Notes: a model not told the origin generated them from the letters alone. A DNA stretch of 64,000 bases from Candidatus Fraserbacteria bacterium (GCA_037440025.1 JBBIUX010000006.1:11296-75295), one strand, 5' to 3'. Shown: positions 18,852 to 36,874, numbered from the stretch's first letter. Translations and numbers: made by a program.

Positions 18852-18920
18852 GAATCACGGAAGGCACGGAATCGCCACGGAGAGCACAGAAGAATGGTTC
18901 TCTCTGTGCCCTCCGTGATG
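18852..18920. repeat. CACGGAAG-type long hairpin repeat (family C)
   Basis: GAATCACGGAAGGCACGGAATCGCCACGG...CTGTGCCCTCCGTGATG imperfect inverted repeat; same family at 23487, 24298, 25286, 25923, 31209, 31616, 32321, 33231. Confidence 0.75.
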
Positions 18921-18984
18921 CAGAGCTTGCACGGGAAAGGGGGAGTAGGTAGGATAGCAAAGTGATTCTCTGGAGGCATTATAT

Positions 18985-23486: not shown

Positions 23487-23573
23487 GAATCACGGAAGGC
23501 GCGGAATCGCCACGGAGAGCACGGAAGATTTTTTCTGTGTCTTCCGTGGCCCGTTCGGTGTCCTCCGTGATTC
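23487..23573. repeat. Family C CACGGAAG hairpin repeat, copy with promoter tail
   Basis: ~135 bp near-identical to 31209-31338. Confidence 0.8.
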
Positions 23574-23578
23574 AAAGT

Positions 23579-23607
23579 TTGACCTGCAGAAGTGCCCAGG
23601 CTATACT
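23579..23607 (+). promoter_or_regulatory. Near-consensus sigma70 promoter TTGACC-17-TATACT embedded in the repeat tail
   Basis: TTGACC 23579-84, TATACT 23602-07, 17-nt spacer; ATG of next ORF at 23634. Confidence 0.6.
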
Positions 23608-23633
23608 GAAAGGGCTGAGGCGAGGTGTGAGCT

Positions 23634-23954
23634 ATGTCTGTCACGAAGTCGCAGCCAAAGCCCCAGGACGTAGAGAAATGGGGCGTCTATGCCAAGGCAA
23701 GTCGGCTCTTCGCGGAAAGGGTCAAAAACCTCCCCGGCGTCCGAGCCGTAGCAGCCAAATATTGCGGGGATTACGTGGATTTGTGGGTCTTCACCGACGA
23801 AGTCCACCAGAGCGAGTTGATCCACCCTGTGGGAGCGGCCCTCAAACAGCTCGGAGAGCAATTTCCTGAACTCCTCTTTGACTCGTTCGTAACACGTCAA
23901 GGGATCCCAGACGGCTTTGTAGCCTTCTTCCATGCCAACGCCCCAGGAGCATGA
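23634..23954 (+). CDS. Hypothetical protein, possibly nucleotidyltransferase-like
   Basis: 106 aa; GDYVDLWVF resembles a degenerate NT-fold motif; 23-nt overlap with next ORF. Confidence 0.3.
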   Translation: MSVTKSQPKPQDVEKWGVYAKASRLFAERVKNLPGVRAVAAKYCGDYVDLWVFTDEVHQSELIHPVGAALKQLGEQFPELLFDSFVTRQGIPDGFVAFFHANAPGA

Positions 23955-25103: not shown

Positions 25104-25126
25104 CGCAAGCAAAAGCTGGCATCGAA

Positions 25127-25349
25127 GCGCCCCTGGGGGGAGACCCCCGGGGGCGGTGGTTTTTAACCTAACCCCCAAGCCCCCTTCCCAGCGAAGAGTC
25201 AAGAGTCTAGGAGTCGAGGGTCGAGAGACTCCAGACCCCCAGACTCTGGACCTTTCTGTAAGGGAGGGGCTAGGGGAGAGGTCTTGAACCACGGCAAGCA
25301 CGGAACCTGCCACGGGGAATACGGAAGACGGCGGGTCTTTTTCCGTGCC
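25127..25349. repeat. Composite intergenic repeat block: terminator-like GC hairpin+T-tract (family D), GAGTC/GACTC-rich repeat (family E), truncated family C hairpin
   Basis: GCGCCCCTGGGGGGAGACCCCCGGGGGCGGTGGTTTTTAACC; AGAGTCTAGGAGTCGAGGGTCGAGAGACTCCAGACCCCCAGACTCTGGACC; GAACCACGGCAAGCACGGAA... Confidence 0.75.
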
Positions 25350-25789: not shown

Positions 25790-26013
25790 TCCCTTCGCGG
25801 TGGTTTTTGACCTAACCCCCCAGCCACCTTCCCAGCGAAGAGTCTAGGAGTCGAGGGTCGAGAGACTCCAGACCCCCAGACTCTGGACCTTTCTGTAAGG
25901 GAGGGGCTAGGGGAGAGGTCTGCATCACGGAAGGCGCGGAATCGCCACGGGGGACACGGAAACGGCAGGTGTTTTCAGTGCCTTCCGTGGCTCTTTCTGT
26001 GGGCTCCGTGGTT
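25790..26013. repeat. Composite repeat block: partial family D, family E (GAGTC-rich), family C hairpin
   Basis: Near-duplicate of the 25127-25349 block in the opposite arrangement around the small membrane gene. Confidence 0.75.
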
Positions 26014-26105
26014 CGAGCTTGCACCGCAAAGCCCCAGGAGGGAGGGAGAGGGGACAGCTTGAACGAAACCGCCGCATAGGGTAGGATGGCTAATCGGAGA
26101 GCACG

Positions 26106-26342
26106 ATGAGCACTGCCATAATGTCGAAACAAACAGAGAAAGCCAAGCAGTTCTATCGCCGGTTGGAGCCCCGCTTGCTCCCTGAGCATCGTGGGCAGAT
26201 CGTAGCCATCGAAATCGAGTCCGGGACTTATTTCCTCGGGGATGACGAGCTGGAGGTCGCCCGCCGTGCCCAAGCCCAATTCCCTGACAAACTCTTTTAT
26301 TTCTTCCGCGTCGGGGAACGCGCCGTCCACAAACTGCGCTAA
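26106..26342 (+). CDS. Small DUF5678-like protein (partner of retropepsin-like protease)
   Basis: 78 aa; stop immediately precedes start of protease gene (TAATG). Confidence 0.4.
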   Translation: MSTAIMSKQTEKAKQFYRRLEPRLLPEHRGQIVAIEIESGTYFLGDDELEVARRAQAQFPDKLFYFFRVGERAVHKLR

Positions 26343-26713
26343 TGCTTCGCGGACGGGTCAATGAGTACGGCGAGCCGCTGGTGGTGATCACCTTGGACTT
26401 GGGCCATAAACGCCAACGGCAGACTGCCATCATTGATACTGGTTTTAACGGTTACCTGAGCGTGCCCAAGCCCGTGATTCAGCAATCTGATTGGCAGTGG
26501 CTTGGCTTTGAGGACTATGAGCTGGCCTCCGGAGCCGTTGTCCGAGAGCAAGTCTACCGGGGAAGAATCATCTTCGATCAGAAACGACTGGAGGTCTACG
26601 TGGTGGCCACTGATTCCGCAGATATTTTGATCGGCACACGATTATTGCAAAGCAAGCGGCTGTTGATCGACTTTAGCAGCGACGCAGTTCACATCAAGGA
26701 CAGTCGCGACTAA
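26342..26713 (+). CDS. Retropepsin-like (clan AA) aspartic peptidase
   Basis: AIIDTGFNGYLSVP = DTG active-site motif in a ~120-aa single-lobe protease. Confidence 0.6.
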   Translation: MLRGRVNEYGEPLVVITLDLGHKRQRQTAIIDTGFNGYLSVPKPVIQQSDWQWLGFEDYELASGAVVREQVYRGRIIFDQKRLEVYVVATDSADILIGTRLLQSKRLLIDFSSDAVHIKDSRD

Positions 26714-26727
26714 GAAGGACAGCCTCG

Positions 26728-26830
26728 AGCGCCCCTGGGGGAGCGATCCCCGGGGGCGGTGGTTTTTGACCTAACCCCCGACTACTACAAAGGTGGGGAG
26801 GGGCTAGGGGAGAGGTCTCGCCGCGTGCAA
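26728..26830. repeat. Family D terminator-like hairpin + GGGGCTAGGGGAGAGGTC tail
   Basis: GAGCGCCCCTGGGGGAGCGATCCCCGGGGGCGGTGGTTTTTGACCTAACCCCC... Confidence 0.7.
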
Positions 26831-26881
26831 ACGGCTTGCACGGCTGTGGCTGGCGGAGTAGGATAACAAGGGTGATCGCGC

Positions 26882-27445
26882 ATGGCCACCAAAGCCCAGA
26901 TCAAATTCACCTACGAAGACTACAAGAGCCTGCCTTACTCAGAGCGCGAGCGCTTTGAGCTCCTGGAAGGAGAGCTGATCCCTATGCCGCCGTCCCCAGG
27001 ATTCGCCCATCAATCGGTCTCGTTGGAGCTGGTTACCCGACTCCATCTCTTTGTGCAGGAGAGAACATTAGGGACGGTCCTTGAGGCCCCCTTTGACGTA
27101 GTGCTGGGAGAGCCCGGGGAAGAGCAGGTCGTGCAGCCGGACATTCTCTTCGTCTCCAAGGAGCGACGCCGTATCATCCAGGAAGACGAAATTCGCGGAG
27201 CGCCTGACCTCGTCGTCGAAATTCTCTCCCCTTCTACGAAAGAGAAGGATCGCACCTACAAGCGCCGTCTCTATGCCAAGTATGGCGTCCGGGAATACTG
27301 GATCGCCGATCCCGACAGTCAGACCATCGAGGTACTCACGCTGGGCAAGCGGGGCTATGAACGGGCCGGGCTCTATCACAAAAACGAGATATTGGAGTCG
27401 CCGCTCTTGTCGGGTCTGCGAATTCCCCTGAGCGAAGTCTTATAG
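26882..27445 (+). CDS. Uma2-family (DUF820) restriction-endonuclease-fold protein, paralogue 1
   Basis: MATKAQIKFTYEDYKSLPY...QPDILFVS...GAPDLVVEILSPST (PD-(D/E)xK-like core). Confidence 0.75.
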   Translation: MATKAQIKFTYEDYKSLPYSERERFELLEGELIPMPPSPGFAHQSVSLELVTRLHLFVQERTLGTVLEAPFDVVLGEPGEEQVVQPDILFVSKERRRIIQEDEIRGAPDLVVEILSPSTKEKDRTYKRRLYAKYGVREYWIADPDSQTIEVLTLGKRGYERAGLYHKNEILESPLLSGLRIPLSEVL

Positions 27446-27455
27446 GACGGAGTCT

Positions 27456-28952
27456 TTGCTCTTTCCAACACGAAGACGGGTTTTGCTATTCGCTGCCATA
27501 GCTCTGTTGGGAGCAGCTTTGGGATTTGGCGGTCTCTTAGAAAGCTGCCAGCCCCCCAATAAAGCGCCGTTAGCGCGCTTCAGCTTTAGCCCCAAAGAGC
27601 CCAAAATCGGGGAGACCGTCACGTTTGACGGCTCGGCTTCGCGAGATCCCGACGGCAAGATTGTCAGCTATCTGTGGGATTTTGGCGACGGAGCGACCGC
27701 TCAGAACGTGACGACAACGCATGCGTTTCAGGAAGACGGCGAGTACGATGTCATTCTGCAGGTAATGGATGACCGCGGCACGAGCTCTAATGTGGAGAAA
27801 ACAGTGCGCGTTGCTCCGCTCAACGAACTGCCTACAGCAAGCTTCACCGTCGCCCCCAGCGAGCCGAAGACAAACCAATCTGTCACTTTTGACGCTTCAG
27901 CATCGGTTGATCCAGACGGCACGATCACAGCTTATACGTGGGAGTTCGGCGATCAAACGACAGGGCAAAACAAGATCGCCACGCACGTCTATAAGACGGC
28001 GGGCACGTACACCGTGAAGCTCACGGTGACGGACAACAAGGGCGCGAAATCTTCGGCCACTAAAGGAATTACTGTTATAGAGGCTCCGCCCAACGAGCCG
28101 CCGTTTGCGAAACTTGACTTCACCCCCGCGACCGCGACGGTCAATGAGCCCGTGAACTTCGACGCTTCCGAATCGCGCGACGACGGCCAGATTGTCAAAT
28201 ATCAATGGGATTTTGGCGACGGTGCCAGCGGTGAGGGTCAGCAGGTCTCGCACACATATAAAACGGCTGGGACGTTTATCGTCAAGCTGACGGTGACAGA
28301 CGATCTCGGTGCAACTGGTTCGACCACGCGCAGCGTGATCGTTCGCGAGTCTGCTGTCATAGAGTCGTTCGCCGTGCCAGGGGAGGAGCCCAGCGGGCTC
28401 GCCTGGGACGGGGAGAACTTCTGGCTGGCTGATATAGACAGCGAGAAGATCTATAAGCTCGATAAAGCCGGGAAGATTCTAAGCTCGTTCGCTGCCCCAG
28501 GGAGCACGCCGACCGGGCTGGCCTGGGATGGGGAGAACTTGTGGGTTGCCGATAGCCTGGATGCACGGATTTATAAAGTCAATCCCCAGAATGGAAAAGT
28601 CACCGGCGCTTTTGATCTCCCCAACTCCGATCCCCAAGGGCTCGCCTGGGATGGCGAGAATCTCTGGGTGATGGACGCCGACACGGGGAAGCTCGAAAAG
28701 CTCGACTCCAACGGGGATGTGCTCGAATCGTTTGACTCCCCCGGCGACTCCCCGGCAGGCCTTACCTGGGACGGCAAAAATCTATGGATGAGTGACAGCG
28801 ATGCCGGGTTAATCAAAATTGACCCAGCGACGGGCAAACAGATCAGCACCGTCAAAGCCCCCGGTCCCGACCCGCGCGGCCTGGCTTGGGATGGGACGTA
28901 TCTGTGGGTCGTGGATGGTGAGGACCTCAAAGTCTATCGGGTGGCGCCATGA
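27456..28952 (+). CDS. Lipoprotein with three PKD domains and a beta-propeller of ~6 'GLAWDGENLWV' blades
   Basis: VTFDGSASRDPDGKIVSYLWDFGDG x3; periodic P.GLAWDG.NLWV.D x6; TTG start, LLESC lipobox-like. Confidence 0.6.
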   Translation: MLFPTRRRVLLFAAIALLGAALGFGGLLESCQPPNKAPLARFSFSPKEPKIGETVTFDGSASRDPDGKIVSYLWDFGDGATAQNVTTTHAFQEDGEYDVILQVMDDRGTSSNVEKTVRVAPLNELPTASFTVAPSEPKTNQSVTFDASASVDPDGTITAYTWEFGDQTTGQNKIATHVYKTAGTYTVKLTVTDNKGAKSSATKGITVIEAPPNEPPFAKLDFTPATATVNEPVNFDASESRDDGQIVKYQWDFGDGASGEGQQVSHTYKTAGTFIVKLTVTDDLGATGSTTRSVIVRESAVIESFAVPGEEPSGLAWDGENFWLADIDSEKIYKLDKAGKILSSFAAPGSTPTGLAWDGENLWVADSLDARIYKVNPQNGKVTGAFDLPNSDPQGLAWDGENLWVMDADTGKLEKLDSNGDVLESFDSPGDSPAGLTWDGKNLWMSDSDAGLIKIDPATGKQISTVKAPGPDPRGLAWDGTYLWVVDGEDLKVYRVAP

Positions 28953-31147
28953 AGTTTTTCAGTCTTTTGGGGATCGGGCTGTTGGCGCTTTCTGTCGGTG
29001 CTGGTGCCCAGACGGGACCGCCGCCAGCCAAATTTGCTTATGACCAACTCGAAAGCCGGCTCGTTGAAGTCGCCCAACGCACCGGAGACAGAACAGCTTG
29101 GGCGCTGCAACACGGGATTCGCTTGGAATCGGGTACCGTGAGCGTCATTCTTGAAAGCGATCAGGTCCGTGAGCAGTCTCTTACGGCGCTCGGCGCTCAG
29201 ATTGAGGCCCGATCTTCCCGTCTGGTGCGCGTGCGCGTGCCCGCTGAAAAGCTCTTTGAACTGGCAGAGAGTTTGCCCCAGAGCGCCTATGTGCGGCTCC
29301 CGCTGCGTCCCTGGGGTGCAACAATCGAAGGTCTCCAGGTGACCGGTGCGAGCGGGTTTCACGCCCAAGGTGTTCGTGGCCAGGGGGTGCGCGTGGCCGT
29401 GATAGATATCGGGTTTTCGGGGCTCTCCGCGGCCATCGCTGCGGGCCGGATTGCTCACGTCGTCTTTCACAAAGACTACACGGGGCTGGGGATGGAAGGT
29501 GGCGACGAACCCCATGGAACAGATGTGACAGAGATTCTCTCCGCCATGGCCCCGGAGGCCGAGTTCTTACTCTATCGAATCACAGATGAAGTTGATTTAG
29601 AGAACGCCGTGGAAGACGCGCTGCAGCGCGGTGTCGAGATTATCAATCACTCGGTCGGCTGGGTGAACACCGATTTTGGCGACGGGACGGGACTGATCGC
29701 ACAGATCGCGCAAAACGCCGTTCGTCGTGGGGCCGTCTGGGTCAACGCTGCCGGAAACGCCGCGCAACGGCATTGGGCAGGGCTATGGCAAGATTTTGAC
29801 AGAGATGGTTGGCTCAATGTCGAAGACGAACGCGAGCGGCTCGCGCTCGAAGTCGAGGCCGGCGACACTATAGAGATCTTTCTGACGTGGGACGAATGGC
29901 CTCGGGCGCGTACGGACTATGATCTCTATCTGTTCTACGATCTTAATGGCGATGGGCAGCTCGATGCCGAAATGGAGATAGTCGCCTCTTCGGTCAATCG
30001 CCAAAGCGGCAGACAGCCCCCAACAGAGAGCATCGAATATCTCGCTCCCCTGCCCGGGCACTATGCTATTGCCGTTGGAGGCCCACCGGAGGCAGCGGGG
30101 AGCGCATTGGAGATTTTCAGCTTTAATCACGACCTGACACCGGCGGTTGCCGCGGGGAGTCTGTTGGCTCCGGCGCAGGCTCCCGACGTGATCGCCGTGG
30201 GTGCTGTAGATTACCAAGAGTATACCCAGGGCACGATCGAGCCTTTTAGCTCCCAAGGGCCGACCAGTGATGGCCGAATGAAACCCGATCTGGCGGCCCC
30301 CGACGGCGTGCTGGTCTCTACAGGGCGCTTCTTTGGGACCTCGGCGTCAGCCCCATTTGTTGCTGGTGCCGCAGCGCTTCTGCTCTCTCTTGAGCCTAAC
30401 TTAAGCCCGGCTCAACTGCGCGTGCGCCTGCTCGCGCAGACTGCTGACGTTGGTCCTGTTGGGGCGGACAACGTTTTTGGCGCGGGCAAGCTGCTATTGC
30501 GCTTTAATACGCAACCGTCGGTTCCCGAACCTGCCGTTTCACAGCTTGATGTAGAGGCGAAGACCAGTGAATTGAAGTGCAAGGAGGGCAAGACAAAGAC
30601 CCTGAGATTCAAAGCGGAAAACACCAGCGATGATGACATTGAAATTGACGAAACCCTCATCGCTACGAATGCCTATTTCGAGCGTGATAGGGACAAGGCA
30701 GCCGGCAAGGTCGTGAAGGCAGACAAGAAGAAGACTCTGTCTGTCAAGGTGGAGTGTCTGCAGACAGAGACCCTCAGCAAGAGCGAATACGAGCAGTATG
30801 TGAGCTTCAGGACCGACGAAGGCGGAGGCCGGATTGCTTATGCTTATCCATCGGGCGTTGGCTCGGTGGTCGCTACGGCTTTGAGTGTCAATGGCGTGCG
30901 GCTCTCCAAGAGCAGAGCGATCTTCGACGTGCAGGGTGCCCCCTTGGCCCAGGTGCAGGTCTTCAGCCTGAGCGGCAAGATGGTCTACGATAGCGGCATG
31001 GTCGCGAGCAGCTCACTCTCCTGGAACCTGCTCAATGAGTCCGGGCAGCGCGTGCCCAATGGCGTCTATCTCTATGTCGTGACGATGCAGGCGCCCGATG
31101 GCCGGTTGGTCAAGAGCAAGATCCAGAAGCTAGTCGTGTTGAGATAG
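28949..31147 (+). CDS. Subtilisin-like S8 serine peptidase with T9SS type-A C-terminal sorting domain
   Basis: D (VAVIDIG), H (HGTDV), S (GTSASAPFVAGAAALL) catalytic motifs; C-terminus VQVFSLSGKMV...NGVYLYVVTMQAPDGRLVKSKIQKLVVLR. Confidence 0.8.
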   Translation: MKFFSLLGIGLLALSVGAGAQTGPPPAKFAYDQLESRLVEVAQRTGDRTAWALQHGIRLESGTVSVILESDQVREQSLTALGAQIEARSSRLVRVRVPAEKLFELAESLPQSAYVRLPLRPWGATIEGLQVTGASGFHAQGVRGQGVRVAVIDIGFSGLSAAIAAGRIAHVVFHKDYTGLGMEGGDEPHGTDVTEILSAMAPEAEFLLYRITDEVDLENAVEDALQRGVEIINHSVGWVNTDFGDGTGLIAQIAQNAVRRGAVWVNAAGNAAQRHWAGLWQDFDRDGWLNVEDERERLALEVEAGDTIEIFLTWDEWPRARTDYDLYLFYDLNGDGQLDAEMEIVASSVNRQSGRQPPTESIEYLAPLPGHYAIAVGGPPEAAGSALEIFSFNHDLTPAVAAGSLLAPAQAPDVIAVGAVDYQEYTQGTIEPFSSQGPTSDGRMKPDLAAPDGVLVSTGRFFGTSASAPFVAGAAALLLSLEPNLSPAQLRVRLLAQTADVGPVGADNVFGAGKLLLRFNTQPSVPEPAVSQLDVEAKTSELKCKEGKTKTLRFKAENTSDDDIEIDETLIATNAYFERDRDKAAGKVVKADKKKTLSVKVECLQTETLSKSEYEQYVSFRTDEGGGRIAYAYPSGVGSVVATALSVNGVRLSKSRAIFDVQGAPLAQVQVFSLSGKMVYDSGMVASSSLSWNLLNESGQRVPNGVYLYVVTMQAPDGRLVKSKIQKLVVLR

Positions 31148-31170
31148 TCGTATAAAAGAACGGAATCGGA

Positions 31171-31295
31171 GCGCCCTTGGGGGGAGACCCCCGGGGGCGT
31201 TGGTTTTTGAATCACGGAAGGCGCGGAATCGCACGGAAAGCACGGAAGGTTTTTTTCTGTGTCTTCTGTGGCCTGTTCGGTGTCCTCCGTGATTC
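31171..31295. repeat. Family D terminator-like hairpin + family C hairpin (second copy of the promoter-bearing unit)
   Basis: GCGCCCTTGGGGGGAGACCCCCGGGGGCGTTGGTTTTTGAATCACGGAAGG... Confidence 0.8.
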
Positions 31296-31300
31296 AAAGT

Positions 31301-31329
31301 TTGACCTGCAGAAGTGCCCAGGCTATACT
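31301..31329 (+). promoter_or_regulatory. TTGACC-17-TATACT promoter (identical to 23579-23607); near-leaderless start
   Basis: ATG at 31339 lies only 9 nt after the -10 hexamer. Confidence 0.6.
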
Positions 31330-31338
31330 GAAAGGGCA

Positions 31339-31509
31339 ATGAACCCGAAACAGCGAGAAGTCTTGGCAGAGAAACTGATGGACGTCGCCAACTATGCAGC
31401 CGGTGCATTGCTGATCGGCCAGATCATTAGCAAAGAGTTCATCATGGCTTGGACGCTCCTGGGCGGAGCGATTTGGTTATGCTTCTACGCGATTGAGGAG
31501 GTGCAGTAA
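31339..31509 (+). CDS. Small two-TM membrane protein (56 aa), cassette gene 1
   Basis: MNPKQREVLAEKLMDVANYAAGALLIGQIISKEFIMAWTLLGGAIWLCFYAIEEVQ; paralogue of the 25481-25702(-) product. Confidence 0.55.
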   Translation: MNPKQREVLAEKLMDVANYAAGALLIGQIISKEFIMAWTLLGGAIWLCFYAIEEVQ

Positions 31510-31616
31510 TGGATACAGTTTTGTTGCTGTTGCTCATCATCCTCGTGGGGGGACTAGCCTTCACGCTGCCCACGATCATTGGGGACTGGCGGCGGGCGCG
31601 CTCCGGGCATAAGTAG
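31509..31616 (+). CDS. Tiny single-TM peptide (35 aa), cassette gene 2
   Basis: MDTVLLLLLIILVGGLAFTLPTIIGDWRRARSGHK; start overlaps upstream stop (TAATG); paralogue of 25368-25478(-). Confidence 0.5.
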   Translation: MDTVLLLLLIILVGGLAFTLPTIIGDWRRARSGHK

Positions 31617-31701
31617 AATCACGGAAGGCGCGGAATCGCCACGGAGAGCACGGAAGTTTTTTCTGTGCCTTCCGTGGTTCTTTCTGTGGACTCCGTGATT
31701 C
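31616..31701. repeat. Family C hairpin repeat
   Basis: GAATCACGGAAGGCGCGGAATCGCCACGGAGAGCACGGAAG-TTTTTTCTGTGCCTTCCGTGG... Confidence 0.8.
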
Positions 31702-31707
31702 CAACGC

Positions 31708-31751
31708 TTGTACAGTGAGGGGGAATGGAGTACCATAACAAGGTGATCTCT
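31708..31751 (+). promoter_or_regulatory. Conserved Uma2 leader: TTGTAC-17-TACCAT promoter-like element + AAGGTGA SD
   Basis: Identical leader at 33303-33346; related TAGGATAAC-AAGGTGATC leaders at 26858 and 33918. Confidence 0.45.
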
Positions 31752-32312
31752 ATGGCCACCAAAGCCCAGATCAAGTTTACTTACGAAGATTACAAAAGCC
31801 TGCCCTACGTGGAGCGCGAGCGCTTTGAGCTCCTGGAAGGAGAGTTGATTATGGCCCCGTCGCCCAATACAGAGCATCAAGAAATTGCTCGTGAACTCTT
31901 CCGCCCTCTGGGGGAGCATATCCGTAGCCATAACCTAGGGAAGATCTATTTTGCTCCTTTAGATGTCGTGCTAGGGGAACCCGGCAACGAACAGGTCGTC
32001 CAACCTGATATTCTCTTTGTCTCTCAAGCCCGTCGCACGATTATCCGCGATGATGAGATCCGCGGAGCCCCAGACTTAGTCGTGGAGATCATCTCGCTCT
32101 CGACGGAAGAGAAGGACCGGGTTTTCAAGCGCCGCCTCTATGCCAAGTATGGCGTCCAGGAATACTGGATCACCGATCCCGACAGTCAGACCATCGAGGT
32201 ACTCACGCTGGGCAAGCGGGGCTACGAGCGGGCGGGACTGTATACGAAGAGCGAGACGCTGAAATCGCCGCTCTTGCCGGGCTTGCACATCCCCCTTGAT
32301 GAGATCTTCTAG
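31752..32312 (+). CDS. Uma2-family endonuclease-fold protein, paralogue 2
   Basis: Same N- and C-terminal sequences as paralogue 1 (~95% nt identity in 3' third), divergent middle. Confidence 0.75.
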   Translation: MATKAQIKFTYEDYKSLPYVERERFELLEGELIMAPSPNTEHQEIARELFRPLGEHIRSHNLGKIYFAPLDVVLGEPGNEQVVQPDILFVSQARRTIIRDDEIRGAPDLVVEIISLSTEEKDRVFKRRLYAKYGVQEYWITDPDSQTIEVLTLGKRGYERAGLYTKSETLKSPLLPGLHIPLDEIF

Positions 32313-32320
32313 AGGCCTTT

Positions 32321-32393
32321 GAATCACGGAAGGCACGGAATCGCACGGAGAGCACGGAAGAACGGCGGGTCTTTTCAGTGTCTTCCGTGGCTC
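32321..32393. repeat. Family C hairpin repeat
   Basis: GAATCACGGAAGGCACGGAATCGCACGGAGAGCACGGAAG...TCTTCCGTGGCTC. Confidence 0.75.
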
Positions 32394-32459
32394 CGCGAGA
32401 GTTCCGGGTTTTCAGGAGACGGCTTGAACGCAACCAAAGAGCGTGATAGGATAAGCTAG

Positions 32460-33088
<629 letters not shown>

Positions 33089-33110
33089 GAGAACCCAACC
33101 CAACGGAATA

Positions 33111-33295
33111 GGCCGCCCTTGGGGGGAGACCCCCGGGGGCGTTTGTTTTTGGGGGCCCTCACCCTGGCCCCTCACCCCTCTGGCTCCCCTCTCCCTCGGA
33201 GGGGAGAGGGGACGGGGGTGAGGGCCTGTGCATCACGGAACGCACGGAAGACTTTCTCTGTGCCTCCCGTGGCTTTTTCAGTGCGTTCTGTGATT
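33111..33295. repeat. Composite repeat block: family D hairpin, family B palindrome, family C hairpin
   Basis: GGCCGCCCTTGGGGGGAGACCCCCGGGGGCGTTTGTTTTTGGGGGCCCTCACCC...GGGGGTGAGGGCCTGTGCATCACGGAACGCACGGAAG... Confidence 0.75.
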
Positions 33296-33346
33296 CCAAC
33301 GCTTGTACAGTGAGGGGGAATGGAGTACCATAACAAGGTGATCTCT

Positions 33347-33940
33347 ATGGCCATCAAAGCCCAGATCAAATTCACCTACGAAGATTACAAGAGCCTGCCC
33401 GAATCTGAGACCGAGCGCTATGAGCTTGTAGAGGGGGAGTTGGTGATGGTTCCTTCACCAGATACAGAACATCAAGATATTGTCGGTAACCTCTTTCGGT
33501 TGCTCAGTGACCACGTCCATAAGCACCGGTTGGGCAAGGTCTACCTCGCTCCCCTGGACGTCGTGCTGGGGGAGCGAGATGAGGAGGAGGTTGTCCAACC
33601 GGATATTCTGTACGTCTCCTACCAGCGTCGGGGTATCATCGCCCGCGAGGAGATCCGTGGTGCTCCAGACCTGATCGTCGAGGTGCTCTCCCCCTCCACA
33701 GCTCAACGTGACCGCACCTTGAAAAAGAAGTTGTACGCACGTCACGGGGTGCAGGAGTATTGGATTGTCGACCCGAAAGCACAAACGCTCGAGGTCTATG
33801 AGTGGCGACCGAAGGGCTTCGAGCGTGTTGGGCTCTATGGTGCTGAGCAAACGCTTACTTCTCGTCTCTTGCCAACCTTACACATTCCCCTGAGAGAAAT
33901 TTTCAATGACCGAGACGGACAAGGTAGGATAACAAGGTGA
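33347..33940 (+). CDS. Uma2-family endonuclease-fold protein, paralogue 3 (3' end reads through the conserved leader of paralogue 4)
   Basis: MAIKAQIKFTYEDYKSLPE...; C-terminus ...DRDGQGRITR encoded by the GGTAGGATAACAAGGTGA leader. Confidence 0.7.
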   Translation: MAIKAQIKFTYEDYKSLPESETERYELVEGELVMVPSPDTEHQDIVGNLFRLLSDHVHKHRLGKVYLAPLDVVLGERDEEEVVQPDILYVSYQRRGIIAREEIRGAPDLIVEVLSPSTAQRDRTLKKKLYARHGVQEYWIVDPKAQTLEVYEWRPKGFERVGLYGAEQTLTSRLLPTLHIPLREIFNDRDGQGRITR

Positions 33941-33945
33941 TCTCT

Positions 33946-34509
33946 ATGGCCACCAAAGCCCAGATTAAATTTACTTACGAAGACTACAAGAGCCTGCCCT
34001 ACGTGGAGCGCCAACGCTTCGAGCTACTCGAAGGAGAATTGATCCCTATGACGCCATCACCCGGTGAGGCCCATCAGGCCACTTCCATAGCCCTGTCGTC
34101 CTTGCTGTACCGATTTGTTCGGGAGCATCAGGTGGGCCGCGTCTACGAAGCCCCATTTGATGTCGTCTTAGGAGAACCAGGAGAGGAGCAGGTCGTCCAG
34201 CCCGATATTCTCTTTGTCTCTCAAGTCCGTCGCACGATTATCCGCGATGATGAGATCCGCGGAGCCCCAGACTTAGTCGTGGAGATCCTCTCACCCTCGA
34301 CCGAAGAGAAGGACCGGGTTTTCAAGCGCCGCCTCTATGCTAAGTATGGGGTAACAGAGTATTGGATTGTGGACCCCGACGCTCGAACTATAGAGGTGCT
34401 GGCGCTGGGCAAGCGGGGCTACGAGCGGGCTAGGCTCTATAAAAAAAGTGAGACGCTGGAATCGCCGCTCTTGCCGGGGTTACACATCGCACTCAATGAA
34501 GTCTTTTGA
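33946..34509 (+). CDS. Uma2-family endonuclease-fold protein, paralogue 4
   Basis: MATKAQIKFTYEDYKSLPYVERQRFELLEGELIPM...; stop overlaps recG start region. Confidence 0.75.
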   Translation: MATKAQIKFTYEDYKSLPYVERQRFELLEGELIPMTPSPGEAHQATSIALSSLLYRFVREHQVGRVYEAPFDVVLGEPGEEQVVQPDILFVSQVRRTIIRDDEIRGAPDLVVEILSPSTEEKDRVFKRRLYAKYGVTEYWIVDPDARTIEVLALGKRGYERARLYKKSETLESPLLPGLHIALNEVF

Positions 34510-36874
34510 TTCTCGGCTCTCCCAACTGCGCAAAGTTTTGCAACTTGAGCAGCGCACCAGCTACCAAGACACCGCTGTCATCGGGGGCTTGGAGGGTTTC
34601 GTCGAGACGTGCGCACAAGAGCTGATGGCTACTCAGACTGAAGCCGTCGTTGCCATCGCACAGCGCTTGAAGAAACTCGTGCGCGGGTACACTATCAAAC
34701 TTCCAGAGGCCCGTCGCGCCGTTGTGCGCGAACTTGAAGATTGCTTGCGGGCTTTGGAGGCCCTCACCCCCAGCCCATCGTCATCCTCACCTCTAGCTCC
34801 TCTCCCCTCCGAGGGAGAAGGGAAAAGGCCAGGTGAGGGTCTACAAGCCTCAGTACGCTTCGCCAAGGGCGTCGGCCCCGAACGGGAGAAGTTACTCAAT
34901 AAGCTTGGCATTCAGACTATTGAAGACCTGTTGACGTACTTCCCGCGCCGCATCGAAGATCGCCGCGAGAGCAAAAAGATCATGCAGCTGCGACACAGCG
35001 ATAAGGTCACCGTCAAAGGGCGCGTGCGGGCCGTGGATGTCATCAGACCCAGAAAAAATCTAGAGATCATCAAAGCGGCCGTTCAGGATAATACGGGGAT
35101 TCTCTATGCCGTCTGGTTCAACCAGCCGTGGCTCAAAAATCAATTAGTGCAGGGCGAGCTGATCGCGCTCTACGGGGCTGTCGAGAGCACGCACGGCCAG
35201 ATGCAGATGAGCAACCCCGTCTGGGAGCCGGCTGGGAAAAATTTTCTCACGGGCCGGCTGGTGCCGGTTTATCCTGCGACGGAAAGGCTCACGCCCACGG
35301 TGCTCTATAGGTTAATTCAGAACAATCTCTCGCGCTCTCGCGATGCGCTCACCGAGGTACTGCCCGAGGACTTGCGGGCACGCCGGGGACTGCTGCCGCG
35401 CGCAGAAGCTTTTGAGAAGATGCACTTCCCCCAAACGGTTGACGAGTACCAACAAGCCCACGATACATTGGCGTTCGAAGAGCTCTTTCTCTTTCAATGG
35501 GGGGTTGCTGTAGAAAAGCAGAAGATCGGCGAGCGCCCTGGACGAAGCTTACACATCTCAAACGAAAGGCTGGACGAGTTTTTCGGAGTGCTGCCCTTCA
35601 AGCTGACGCGAGCGCAAGAGCGAGCGATTGCCGAGATCCGCGCCGATCTGGCGGCTCCCCAACCGATGAATCGGCTCTTGCAAGGGGACGTCGGCTCCGG
35701 CAAGACGGTTGTGGCGACGGCGGCATGCTTGATCGCTATGGAGTCGGACTACCAGGCGGCGCTCATGGCGCCGACAGAGATATTGGCGCAGCAGCACTTT
35801 CGTAACATTACAGAGTTGCTCGCGCGGCTGAGCAAGCCCCCAAGAGTCGTGCTGCTCATCGGGAGCCTGCCGGAGCGCGATAAGGCGTCTCTACGCCGGA
35901 CGATCCAGCAGGGCGACATTGACTTAGTGATCGGCACGCACGCGCTCATCCAAGATGAAGTGCGCTTTCAGCGCTTGGGACTGGCCGTGATTGACGAGCA
36001 ACACCGTTTCGGGGTCGTTCAGCGAGCCCAGCTCGAACAGAAGGGCGCAAATGTAGATATTTTAGTCATGAGCGCCACCCCCATCCCTCGAACGATTACT
36101 CTGACGCTTTACGGGCAATTTGAGGTCTCTCTTTTGGACGAACTGCCCTTTGAGAAGCAGATCCAGACATTCTGGATTTCCGAGGAGAAGCGCGACCAGG
36201 TCTATGATTTTGTCGTGCAAGAGCTGAAGACGGGCGCTCAGGCGTATATTGTCTTCCCCTTGATCGAAGAGTCTGAAGAGCTGGACTTGAAAGCCGCGAC
36301 GCAGGCGAAAGAAGAATTAGAACAGACGTTTTTGAAAGAGTTTCGTGTGGGGTTGCTGCACGGGCGCATGAGCGAGAGCGAGAAGCAAGCCGTCATGAAG
36401 CGGCTCGTCCATAAGGAGCTGGACGTTCTCGTGAGCACGACCATTATTGAAGTCGGAATCGATGTGCCCAGCGCGACTGTTATGATTATTGAGCACGCTG
36501 ATAGATTTGGGCTGTCGCAGCTCCATCAGTTGCGAGGGCGGATAGGGCGGGCCGGAGATAAGTCCTATTGTTTTGCCATCGCGACCCCGCGCAGCGAAGA
36601 GGGCCAACGACGGCTGCACGTCTTTCAGGGCACACTGGACGGCTTTCAGATCGCCGAAGAAGACTTAAAGATTCGCGGCCCAGGCGATATGCTCGGCGTG
36701 GCGCAGCACGGGCTCGACAGCACCTTCAAGGTTGCAGACCTGATAGCAGATATAGATTTGATGAAAGCCGCGCGCGAGGAAGCTTTTCAGTTGGTGCAAC
36801 AGAAGCCGGACGACGCTCTTACAGCCGAGTTTCGGCGTCGCTTCGGGGACAAGTTCGAGCTGGCAAGAGTATAA
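34496..36874 (+). CDS. recG: ATP-dependent DNA helicase RecG
   Basis: Wedge domain + SF2 helicase motifs (GDVGSGKT, DEQHRFGV, MSATPIPRT, QLRGRIGR); carries an in-frame family-B-like palindromic insert near the N-terminus. Confidence 0.9.
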   Translation: MKSFDSRLSQLRKVLQLEQRTSYQDTAVIGGLEGFVETCAQELMATQTEAVVAIAQRLKKLVRGYTIKLPEARRAVVRELEDCLRALEALTPSPSSSSPLAPLPSEGEGKRPGEGLQASVRFAKGVGPEREKLLNKLGIQTIEDLLTYFPRRIEDRRESKKIMQLRHSDKVTVKGRVRAVDVIRPRKNLEIIKAAVQDNTGILYAVWFNQPWLKNQLVQGELIALYGAVESTHGQMQMSNPVWEPAGKNFLTGRLVPVYPATERLTPTVLYRLIQNNLSRSRDALTEVLPEDLRARRGLLPRAEAFEKMHFPQTVDEYQQAHDTLAFEELFLFQWGVAVEKQKIGERPGRSLHISNERLDEFFGVLPFKLTRAQERAIAEIRADLAAPQPMNRLLQGDVGSGKTVVATAACLIAMESDYQAALMAPTEILAQQHFRNITELLARLSKPPRVVLLIGSLPERDKASLRRTIQQGDIDLVIGTHALIQDEVRFQRLGLAVIDEQHRFGVVQRAQLEQKGANVDILVMSATPIPRTITLTLYGQFEVSLLDELPFEKQIQTFWISEEKRDQVYDFVVQELKTGAQAYIVFPLIEESEELDLKAATQAKEELEQTFLKEFRVGLLHGRMSESEKQAVMKRLVHKELDVLVSTTIIEVGIDVPSATVMIIEHADRFGLSQLHQLRGRIGRAGDKSYCFAIATPRSEEGQRRLHVFQGTLDGFQIAEEDLKIRGPGDMLGVAQHGLDSTFKVADLIADIDLMKAAREEAFQLVQQKPDDALTAEFRRRFGDKFELARV

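Follow-up and report, generated by a model that had tools for sequence, protein, structure and literature searches.

Uma2 (COG4636, PF05685; also DUF820 or TT1808) is among the largest bacterial protein families without a known function. Feder and Bujnicki (PMC551604) described it as massively expanded, with tandem copies and without linked methyltransferases or mobile-element genes, and it makes up more than 2% of the genes in Gloeobacter (PMC551604). They defined for COG4636 a variant active site that combines a histidine with a PD-EXX-K motif, put a conserved His-Gln pair at or near the active site, read species-specific clusters as independent proliferation and considered that dispersed copies may act as substrates for homologous recombination. 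Makarova, Wolf and Koonin (2009; PMC2701414) listed Uma2 as a "likely solo toxin" and reported paralogue cassettes, with 114 COG4636-COG4636 pairs. Here we describe a 64,000-nucleotide (nt) stretch of DNA from Candidatus Fraserbacteria bacterium (GCA_037440025.1, JBBIUX010000006.1:11296-75295), called the window throughout, whose + strand carries four Uma2 open reading frames (ORFs), U1 to U4. An earlier note on this DNA had described the four as paralogues with near-identical ends and a different middle, and had explained the pattern as cassette-like diversification of a specificity segment by gene conversion. Our analysis suggests that the conversion acts on the other parts of the gene: the pattern is probably one of concerted evolution around an unconverted core, in which one face of a helix, alpha1, would be the recognition determinant.

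Concerted evolution of multigene families by gene conversion between paralogues, with an unconverted and selected segment, is a general phenomenon. The present locus shares with it lineage-specific tracts of high identity, segments whose histories are incongruent and a divergent core resistant to conversion; what differs is that the process is applied here to Uma2 and that the unconverted core maps to a defined structural element. U1 to U4 are thus new members of a known family under a known evolutionary process, and since gene conversion among clustered paralogues is common, they are a clear and fairly ordinary case of it.

The four genes, identified by ORF listing and Pfam, are as follows.

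26882..27445, + strand: U1, Uma2/COG4636 gene, 187 amino acids (aa); Pfam E 1.5e-40, PADLOC PDC-S03 E 2.6e-45
31752..32312, + strand: U2, Uma2 gene, 186 aa; Pfam E 6.5e-38
33347..33940, + strand: U3, Uma2 gene, 197 aa; Pfam E 1.8e-40
33946..34509, + strand: U4, Uma2 gene, 187 aa; Pfam E 8e-40

Their membership of the Uma2 family is secure because the Pfam match, the active-site residues and the fold agree. All four proteins match the Pfam profile with 130-139 bits (gathering score, 27 bits) over 171/172 profile positions and with E values of about 1e-38 to 1e-40, which confirms the assignment in the earlier note. The residues H43, D87 (QPD), E113 (VEIL) and K127, which match the published His plus PD-EXX-K variant, are present in each of them and invariant in 119/119 aligned homologues of the subfamily. 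These homologues came from metagenome-assembled genomes (MAGs) labelled Bipolaricaulota/Acetothermia, Fraserbacteria and a few others. An AF2 model of U1, built on the 119-sequence alignment, has a pLDDT of 91 and matched 6OKH in Foldseek (E 2.6e-20, TM 0.88/0.92), together with 9Y1L, 3OT2 and 1WDJ; all four are uncharacterised Uma2 structures, and 9Y1L was also matched by sequence (E 2e-40). The model therefore has the restriction-endonuclease-like fold of the solved family members. Overall protein identity among the four is 59-79%, U3 being the most divergent copy, and the N-terminus MATKAQIKFTYEDYKSLP is unchanged apart from T3I in U3, which bears out its description as near-invariant. With all four ORFs intact and the catalytic residues kept, simple decay had rightly been set aside, and the proteins look functional, with a predicted PD-EXX-K nuclease fold. 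A tblastn search across the window found no fifth copy.

The locus resembles the family as described by Feder and Bujnicki in its profile match, active site, fold and multiple, tandem copies, and no methyltransferase or mobile-element gene is linked to U1-U4 among the genes checked between and beside them. It differs in that the present subfamily comes from MAGs labelled Bipolaricaulota/Acetothermia and their relatives rather than from cyanobacteria, and in a layout of type-conserved alpha1 block and homogenised flanks that is not described in that paper (PMC551604). Our literature search found no description of such a modular layout, in which whole ORFs are also replaced at a given slot. As in the Uma2-Uma2 cassettes (PMC2701414), U3 and U4 are adjacent with the spacing of a toxin-antitoxin (TA) pair (a 5-nt gap) and have TA-like DUF433/DUF5615 neighbours, a likeness of gene arrangement alone; unlike in a fixed cassette, the partner of the U4-type gene varies between genomes. 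All four proteins also match the models of PADLOC PDC-S03, a candidate single-gene phage-defence system (E 2.6e-45 to 8.2e-49); PDC entries are candidates by definition, and no paper on PDC-S03 was found in the literature search.

In the HsdS subunit of type I restriction-modification systems, variable target-recognition domains are shuffled between conserved regions. This shuffling appears to be the nearest functional analogy, by resemblance and not by membership: both have a conserved-variable-conserved layout, and in both, discrete variable types seem to be re-associated through recombination in conserved segments. In contrast to HsdS, the fold here is unrelated, what varies is about 25 residues on one helix face within the catalytic domain and not a whole domain, and no methyltransferase partner, inverted-repeat shufflon or recombinase was found among the genes between and beside the copies, the part of the window that was scanned for them.

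Conversion tracts and the middle block

Pairwise nucleotide identities were computed in a codon-aware sliding window, with nt and codon numbers counted within each Uma2 gene. Identity is 83-93% for all pairs at nt 1-60 and falls to 35-55% for all pairs at nt 106-210. It then rises for particular pairs, to 93-98% for U2/U4 at nt 241-375 and to 95-97% for U1/U2 at nt 391-480, while the rest of the gene lies at about 50-80% for most pairs. Stretches at least 95% identical were taken as conversion tracts.

27259..27366, + strand: U1 side of the U1/U2 tract, gene nt 378-485, 108 nt with 5 mismatches
32126..32233, + strand: U2 side of the U1/U2 tract; here U2 is only 65-73% identical to its own orthologue
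31992..32152, + strand: U2 side of the U2/U4 tract, 161 nt with 8 mismatches
34189..34349, + strand: U4 side of the U2/U4 tract; here the identity of U4 to its syntenic orthologue drops to 63-78%
31695..31804, + strand: U2 side of the U2/U3 tract, comprising promoter, leader and the first 53 coding nt, 111 nt with 5 mismatches
33290..33399, + strand: U3 side of the same U2/U3 tract

The U2/U3 tract runs from -57 to +53 at 95% identity and is identical from -57 to +7 (64 nt); a U1/U3 tract covers nt 1-53. In a GENECONV-style test with 10,000 permutations, the longest runs of agreeing polymorphic sites were 29 for U1/U2 and 27 for U2/U4 (p<=1e-4 each). Checked at the nucleotide level, the genes thus show sharp, significant breakpoints, and uniform divergence along the gene was not seen. 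The C-terminal third, which had been put at about 95% identity in all four copies, reaches that value only between U1 and U2 (nt 378-485); there, the identity of U4 to U1 and U2 is about 67-85%, and that of U3 to the other three about 47-67%.

Where two copies encode the same amino acid, the codon is identical at a fraction of 0.90 of sites for U1/U2 (aa 126-160) and 0.80 for U2/U4 (aa 73-125), against a background of 0.35-0.45. Since synonymous identity in the tracts is far over background, the similarity is at the DNA level and is unexplained by protein constraint. This indicates that the high-identity tracts arose by recombination. Codons 1-33 were also considered as a functional element at the nucleotide level, given their raised synonymous identity (0.67-0.74 in the window, 0.61 between genomes), and this candidate was rejected. 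Rfam gave no match, and dS of these codons between "orthologues" is 0.8-1.5, above that of the middle block. These values would be better explained by a common pool of 5' ends that are exchanged than by a conserved RNA element.

Between the two similar ends lies the block that differs in every copy.

26981..27097, + strand: U1 middle block, codons 34-72, predicted loop, helix alpha1 and strand beta1; 35-55% identical to the other paralogues
31851..31964, + strand: U2 type-specific middle block; 87-90% identical to the L033 orthologue
33446..33559, + strand: U3 type-specific middle block; 93-97% identical to the L034 gene
34045..34161, + strand: U4 type-specific middle block; 93-100% identical to the L033 orthologue

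Over codons ~34-72, only 13-22 of 38-39 residues are identical between paralogues, with 35-55% nucleotide identity and an indel, so the statement that the middle differs per copy holds. The alpha1 types are GFAHQSVSLELVTRLHLF in U1, NTEHQEIARELFRPLGEH in U2, DTEHQDIVGNLFRLLSDH in U3 and GEAHQATSIALSSLLYRF in U4. Between orthologues, the same block is the best-conserved part of the gene (87-100% identity): same-type U2 orthologues occur in L025 and L033, and the U1 block is 72-87% identical to those of the same-type genes in L001 and L002. Within types its dN/dS is 0.00-0.17. U2 and its L033 orthologue differ in the block by 10 synonymous changes and 1 non-synonymous change, and U3 and the L034 gene by 7 synonymous and 0 non-synonymous changes; purifying selection on the block is strong within each type. 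When aa 40-68 of the 119 proteins were grouped by single-linkage clustering, 40 block types resulted, and the block accordingly exists as discrete, old types common to several genomes, with at least 40 in the subfamily. Across the 119 sequences, identity in the block is weakly correlated with identity in the C-terminal part (r=0.28); the best C-terminal match of U1 bears a U2-type block.

Entropy across the 119 aligned sequences peaks at aa 45-68, with 1.97 bits compared with 0.8-1.5 in other parts. The AF2 model of U1 places helix alpha1 at residues 41-60 (pLDDT 96-99), followed by a strand at 64-68, and the block comes directly after the invariant His43-Gln44. Within the helix, entropy rises and falls with the period of an alpha-helix (peak at 100 degrees, p=0.002): one stripe, made up of I46, S47, L50, L54, F57 and V58, is conserved, and positions 45, 48, 49, 51-53, 55, 56 and 59-62, which vary and are mostly polar or charged in U1-U4, make up the remaining helix surface. 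In the model, the block corresponds to the non-core face of helix alpha1 plus the start of strand beta1. Because the variable positions lie off the conserved core-packing stripe, by entropy and the AF2 model, the block does not map to a buried or non-functional region, the case in which the reading of the earlier note would have failed.

Relatives with the same gene order show the direction of change. The closest relatives of the source genome are MAGs labelled Bipolaricaulota/Acetothermia, and U1-U4 sit in a variable accessory stretch upstream of recG. L033 (GCA_900175145.1) has a U2-type gene, then a U4-type gene, then recG, and matches the window at 87-91% nucleotide identity through recG and further on. 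Over ~nt 31-480, U4 and its L033 orthologue are 92-100% identical except at nt 241-360, where identity is 63-78%, and this low stretch coincides exactly with the U2/U4 tract. Between U2 and its L033 orthologue, identity is 85-90% across the 5' half but 65-73% across the 3' half. The two resident paralogues within L033 are in turn 98-100% identical to each other at nt 421-540, an independent conversion in that lineage. L002 and L003, which come from two MAGs and bear different types, share 88-97% identity outside the block but 53-57% within it. Flanks replaced in a lineage-specific manner around a conserved block argue that conversion homogenises the flanks, and that the block is the unconverted, selected core. 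The proposal that gene conversion diversifies the middle is therefore reversed: the flanks are homogenised, and the middle is old, conserved and never converted. Nor were cassette-like donors present, as a BLASTN search with each block against the whole window found only the four genes themselves and no extra, partial or silent copy.

The middle can be called swapped in one sense, between genomes, where whole coding sequences including the block have been replaced at given slots; within the genes it is not converted. In L034 (GCA_037440785.1), the gene in the U1 slot is U3-type (89.7% nucleotide identity to U3, 69.5% to U1), stands behind a U1-type promoter and leader, and has downstream of it the PKD and S8 peptidase genes also found after U1. 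Directly after its stop, at 6570-6700 of L034, the 3' end of a U1-type gene survives in decayed form: it matches U1 nt 483-532 at 90% identity, has lost 16 nt by deletion and is interrupted by in-frame stops. In the slot before U4, the window has U3 and L033 has a U2-type gene, whereas in L016 a further Uma2 type followed by DUF433/DUF5615 precedes recG, with no Uma2 gene directly before it. The middle type at one slot is thus swapped between genomes, with the conserved 5' end as the anchor. Three contigs of one MAG (L034, L035 and L036, all GCA_037440785.1) carry an identical Uma2 gene followed by the PKD gene, with different upstream sequence, which points to strain-level structural variation or assembly redundancy at the slot.

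Based on these observations, we propose that short-tract gene conversion (~50-160 nt) between paralogues would repeatedly overwrite two regions, one comprising promoter, leader and the first ~100 nt and the other the 3' two-thirds of the gene, and would never reach the ~115-nt block at codons 34-72. Over a longer timescale, recombination anchored in the conserved 5' end would replace whole coding sequences at a given slot, so that related genomes would bear different types behind the same promoter. The alpha1 face would set what each paralogue recognises, be it a nucleic-acid target or a protein partner, and the genome would then hold a repertoire of specificities on one shared catalytic scaffold. 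We consider this specificity role of the helix plausible, as inferred from the sequence comparisons.

Promoters, leaders and the U3/U4 junction

The leader quoted for the four genes is indeed shared: it is TACCATAACAAGGTGATCTCTATG in U2 and U3, GTAGGATAACAAGGTGATCTCTATG in U4 and GTAGGATAACAAGGGTGATCGCGCATG in U1. The predicted signals around it are listed here.

26836..26881, + strand: U1 promoter and leader (-35 TTGCAC, 17-nt spacer, -10 TAGGAT, Shine-Dalgarno GGTGATC)
31708..31751, + strand: U2 promoter and leader (TTGTAC, 17 nt, TACCAT, GGTGATC)
33303..33346, + strand: U3 promoter and leader, the same sequence as that of U2
33925..33945, + strand: U4 -10 box TAGGAT and Shine-Dalgarno, within the U3 extension; the -35 box is only weak (TTCAAT)
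33905..33940, + strand: U3 stop-loss extension, 11 codons plus TGA across the U4 -10 box and Shine-Dalgarno, as read from the sequence

A -10 box and a GGTGATC ribosome-binding site were recognised at 4/4 genes and a clear -35 box at three (U1-U3); at these three the Shine-Dalgarno lies 3-4 nt 5' of the ATG. The same layout (TTGAC-like box, 17 nt, TAGnAT or TAtAAT, GGTGAT) is found 5' of homologues at ~15 loci of other genomes, whose promoters are often nearer consensus (TTGAC, 17 nt, TAGTATAAT). The promoters of U1-U3 are therefore predicted, from consensus, to be sigma70-like, and in this predicted layout the "leader" would consist of a -10 box and a ribosome-binding site.

U3 has lost its normal stop: alignment with the U1 3' end shows AAT at the former TAG position. 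As had been noticed, the C-terminus of U3 consequently reads through the U4 leader (...NDRDGQGRITR*), whereas in the orthologue B_U3t a stop follows after only 3 extra residues. The two genes had further been called fused, which is not the case. They are separate ORFs in different frames (U3 in frame 2, U4 in frame 1), and the U3 TGA (33938-33940) lies inside the U4 Shine-Dalgarno, 5 nt 5' of the U4 ATG, so that the genes abut and may be translationally coupled. At its other end, U4 overlaps the likely recG start codon (ATG at 34496) by its last 14 nt (34496-34509), and both this overlap and the adjacency of a U4-type gene and recG recur in L033.

Alternative explanations and significance

It is improbable, though worth weighing, that the block is a passive barrier: the least constrained surface of the protein, diverged past the homology that recombination needs while the flanks still convert, and without a role in specificity. 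Such a barrier would agree with the block being the highest-entropy region of the subfamily, with the mostly polar variable positions of U1-U4 and with a within-genome non-redundancy of types that is not significant. An unconstrained surface, however, would not be expected to show only synonymous changes between U3 and the L034 gene, or within-type conservation at least equal to that of the flanks, and the block begins at the invariant His-Gln near the active site. Oligomerisation offers another possible, if doubtful, role for the alpha1 face, as a pairing surface that prevents mixed dimers or defines toxin/neutraliser-like tandem pairs such as U3-U4. Relatives in the PDB crystallise with two or three chains, Makarova et al. 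(PMC2701414) treat Uma2 as a solo toxin that nonetheless occurs in pairs, the position of the U3 stop suggests coupled expression with U4, and different types are found in all genomes sampled. The variable positions, on the other hand, are mostly polar or charged and not hydrophobic, and the tandem partner of the U4-type gene changes (U3 type in the window, U2 type in L033), which argues against fixed cognate pairs. A conserved cognate two-gene unit, as in type II toxin-antitoxin systems, is not what is found here, as the partner varies and L016 has no Uma2 gene directly before recG.

The remaining alternatives concern the origin of the mosaic itself. That there was no recombination, the termini being alike through protein constraint and the middle evolving faster, is highly improbable and already contradicted: the N-terminus and the C-terminal motifs are indeed conserved as protein across phyla, but the tracts are pair-specific, near-identical at synonymous sites and significant by permutation, orthologues show lineage-specific replacement, and the relationships of block and C-terminal part are incongruent. 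An error of metagenome assembly, in which repeats led to the wrong joining of reads from paralogues or related strains, deserves attention because the closest relatives of the 75 kb NCBI source contig are all metagenome-assembled, the tracts are shorter than typical read pairs, and one related assembly has three redundant contigs of one locus. We regard it as very unlikely, given that gene order is backed by synteny with two independent assemblies, that mosaics of the same kind occur independently in L033 and in L002/L003, and that all ORFs are intact. Programmed diversification, whether by silent cassettes, an invertible shufflon or a diversity-generating retroelement rewriting the block in situ, would produce a similar conserved-variable-conserved layout. 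It is hardly credible here: the four copies are complete, in direct orientation and each equipped with its own -10 box and ribosome-binding site; with less than 55% identity and an indel, the blocks do not resemble template/variable repeat pairs; block types stay stable from one genome to another; and the genes between the copies, the part of the window scanned, showed no recombinase or reverse transcriptase. The retroelement, shufflon and silent-cassette readings were rejected, as BLASTN finds the blocks in the four genes of the window and in no extra or partial copy.

Several points weigh against concerted evolution around a selected core. Since neither orthologue matches the U2/U4 tract, a third donor, itself unseen, is implied. 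Too much divergence could by itself keep the block from being converted, with no selection for diversity, and avoidance of two same-type genes per genome reached only p=0.09, a value confounded by the collapse of similar copies in MAG assembly. A stricter promoter-scanner rule called none of the Uma2 promoters. For the functional part, the literature searched contains no functional study on Uma2, 9Y1L or PDC-S03 and no published biochemistry on nuclease activity of any Uma2 member.

With concerted evolution around an unconverted core as the probable explanation, the variable alpha1 face beside the active-site His-Gln behaves as a conserved allele series, while paralogues trade the remainder of the gene freely. 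The locus would then point to the probable functional determinant of an abundant, unexplained family. It also provides an experimental handle, since natural chimeras exist and alpha1 swaps are easy to make; the prediction is that phenotype tracks the helix. Trees of whole Uma2 genes, moreover, mix histories, and species-specific clades in them may reflect gene conversion rather than independent expansions. More tentatively, and by analogy, we speculate that Uma2 could be a modular repertoire of nucleases or binding proteins in which the alpha1 face determines specificity and is re-assorted by conversion at the conserved ends, much as in HsdS, possibly in defence (PDC-S03) or in self/non-self discrimination. 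We think this wider proposal rather unlikely as it stands; if it is true, the reported "species-specific proliferations" would be partly artefacts of concerted evolution.

Neighbouring genes and dispersed repeats

The genes between and beside the copies encode a PKD/NHL protein, an S8 peptidase, DUF433/DUF5615 proteins, a clan-AA protease-like protein and RecG. The DUF433 and DUF5615 genes (32469-33088) overlap by 4 nt as a TA-like pair, and at 26106-26713 there is a gene for a 78-aa protein beside one for a clan-AA aspartic-protease-like protein that falls below the NCBIfam cut-off. Both units recur beside Uma2 genes in other MAGs (L016, L025).

An imperfect palindrome of ~90 nt, made of CACGGAA/TTCCGTG units, has 6 full copies in the window, all on the + strand, against 0 expected by chance, and its predicted RNA hairpins have energies of -41 to -59 kcal/mol. 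The full copies lie at 18852-18945, 23487-23580, 25922-26014, 31209-31295, 31616-31701 and 32321-32414, and a half copy at ~33215-33296. The 3' arm ends a few nt before the sigma70-like -35 box of the next gene; the copy at 31616..31701 (+) is directly upstream of the U2 -35 box. The palindrome precedes Uma2 genes, small membrane-protein genes and TA-like pairs alike, as a genome-wide intergenic repeat, and is also found in the related MAGs L001, L009, L011, L012, L016, L033, L034 and L036; a role as a Uma2-specific recombination site was rejected because it also precedes unrelated genes. It gave no Rfam match in the window.

A GC-rich hairpin followed by a T-run (CCCTTGGGGGGAGACCCCCGGGGGCG..TTTTT) stands after four different genes (25120-25165, 26730-26770, 31170-31210 and 33114-33150); it resembles an intrinsic terminator and is itself a dispersed repeat. 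A perfect 84-nt direct repeat (25201-25284 and 25838-25921), with flanks 92% identical (25153-25203 and 25797-25847), suggests a recent local duplication around a small - strand ORF. About 7.7 kb apart, at 23487-23640 and 31209-31509, lie two copies of a segment made up of the CACGGAA/TTCCGTG palindrome, a promoter (TTGACC, 17 nt, TATACT) and the beginning of a gene for a small membrane protein that matches DUF6722 weakly. Finally, palindromes of the GGGGAGAGGGG/CCCCTCTCCCC type occur at 33169-33223, between genes, and at 34785-34839, within the recG coding sequence, where the copy falls in a Ser/Pro/Gly-rich linker and may be a repeat element tolerated in frame.

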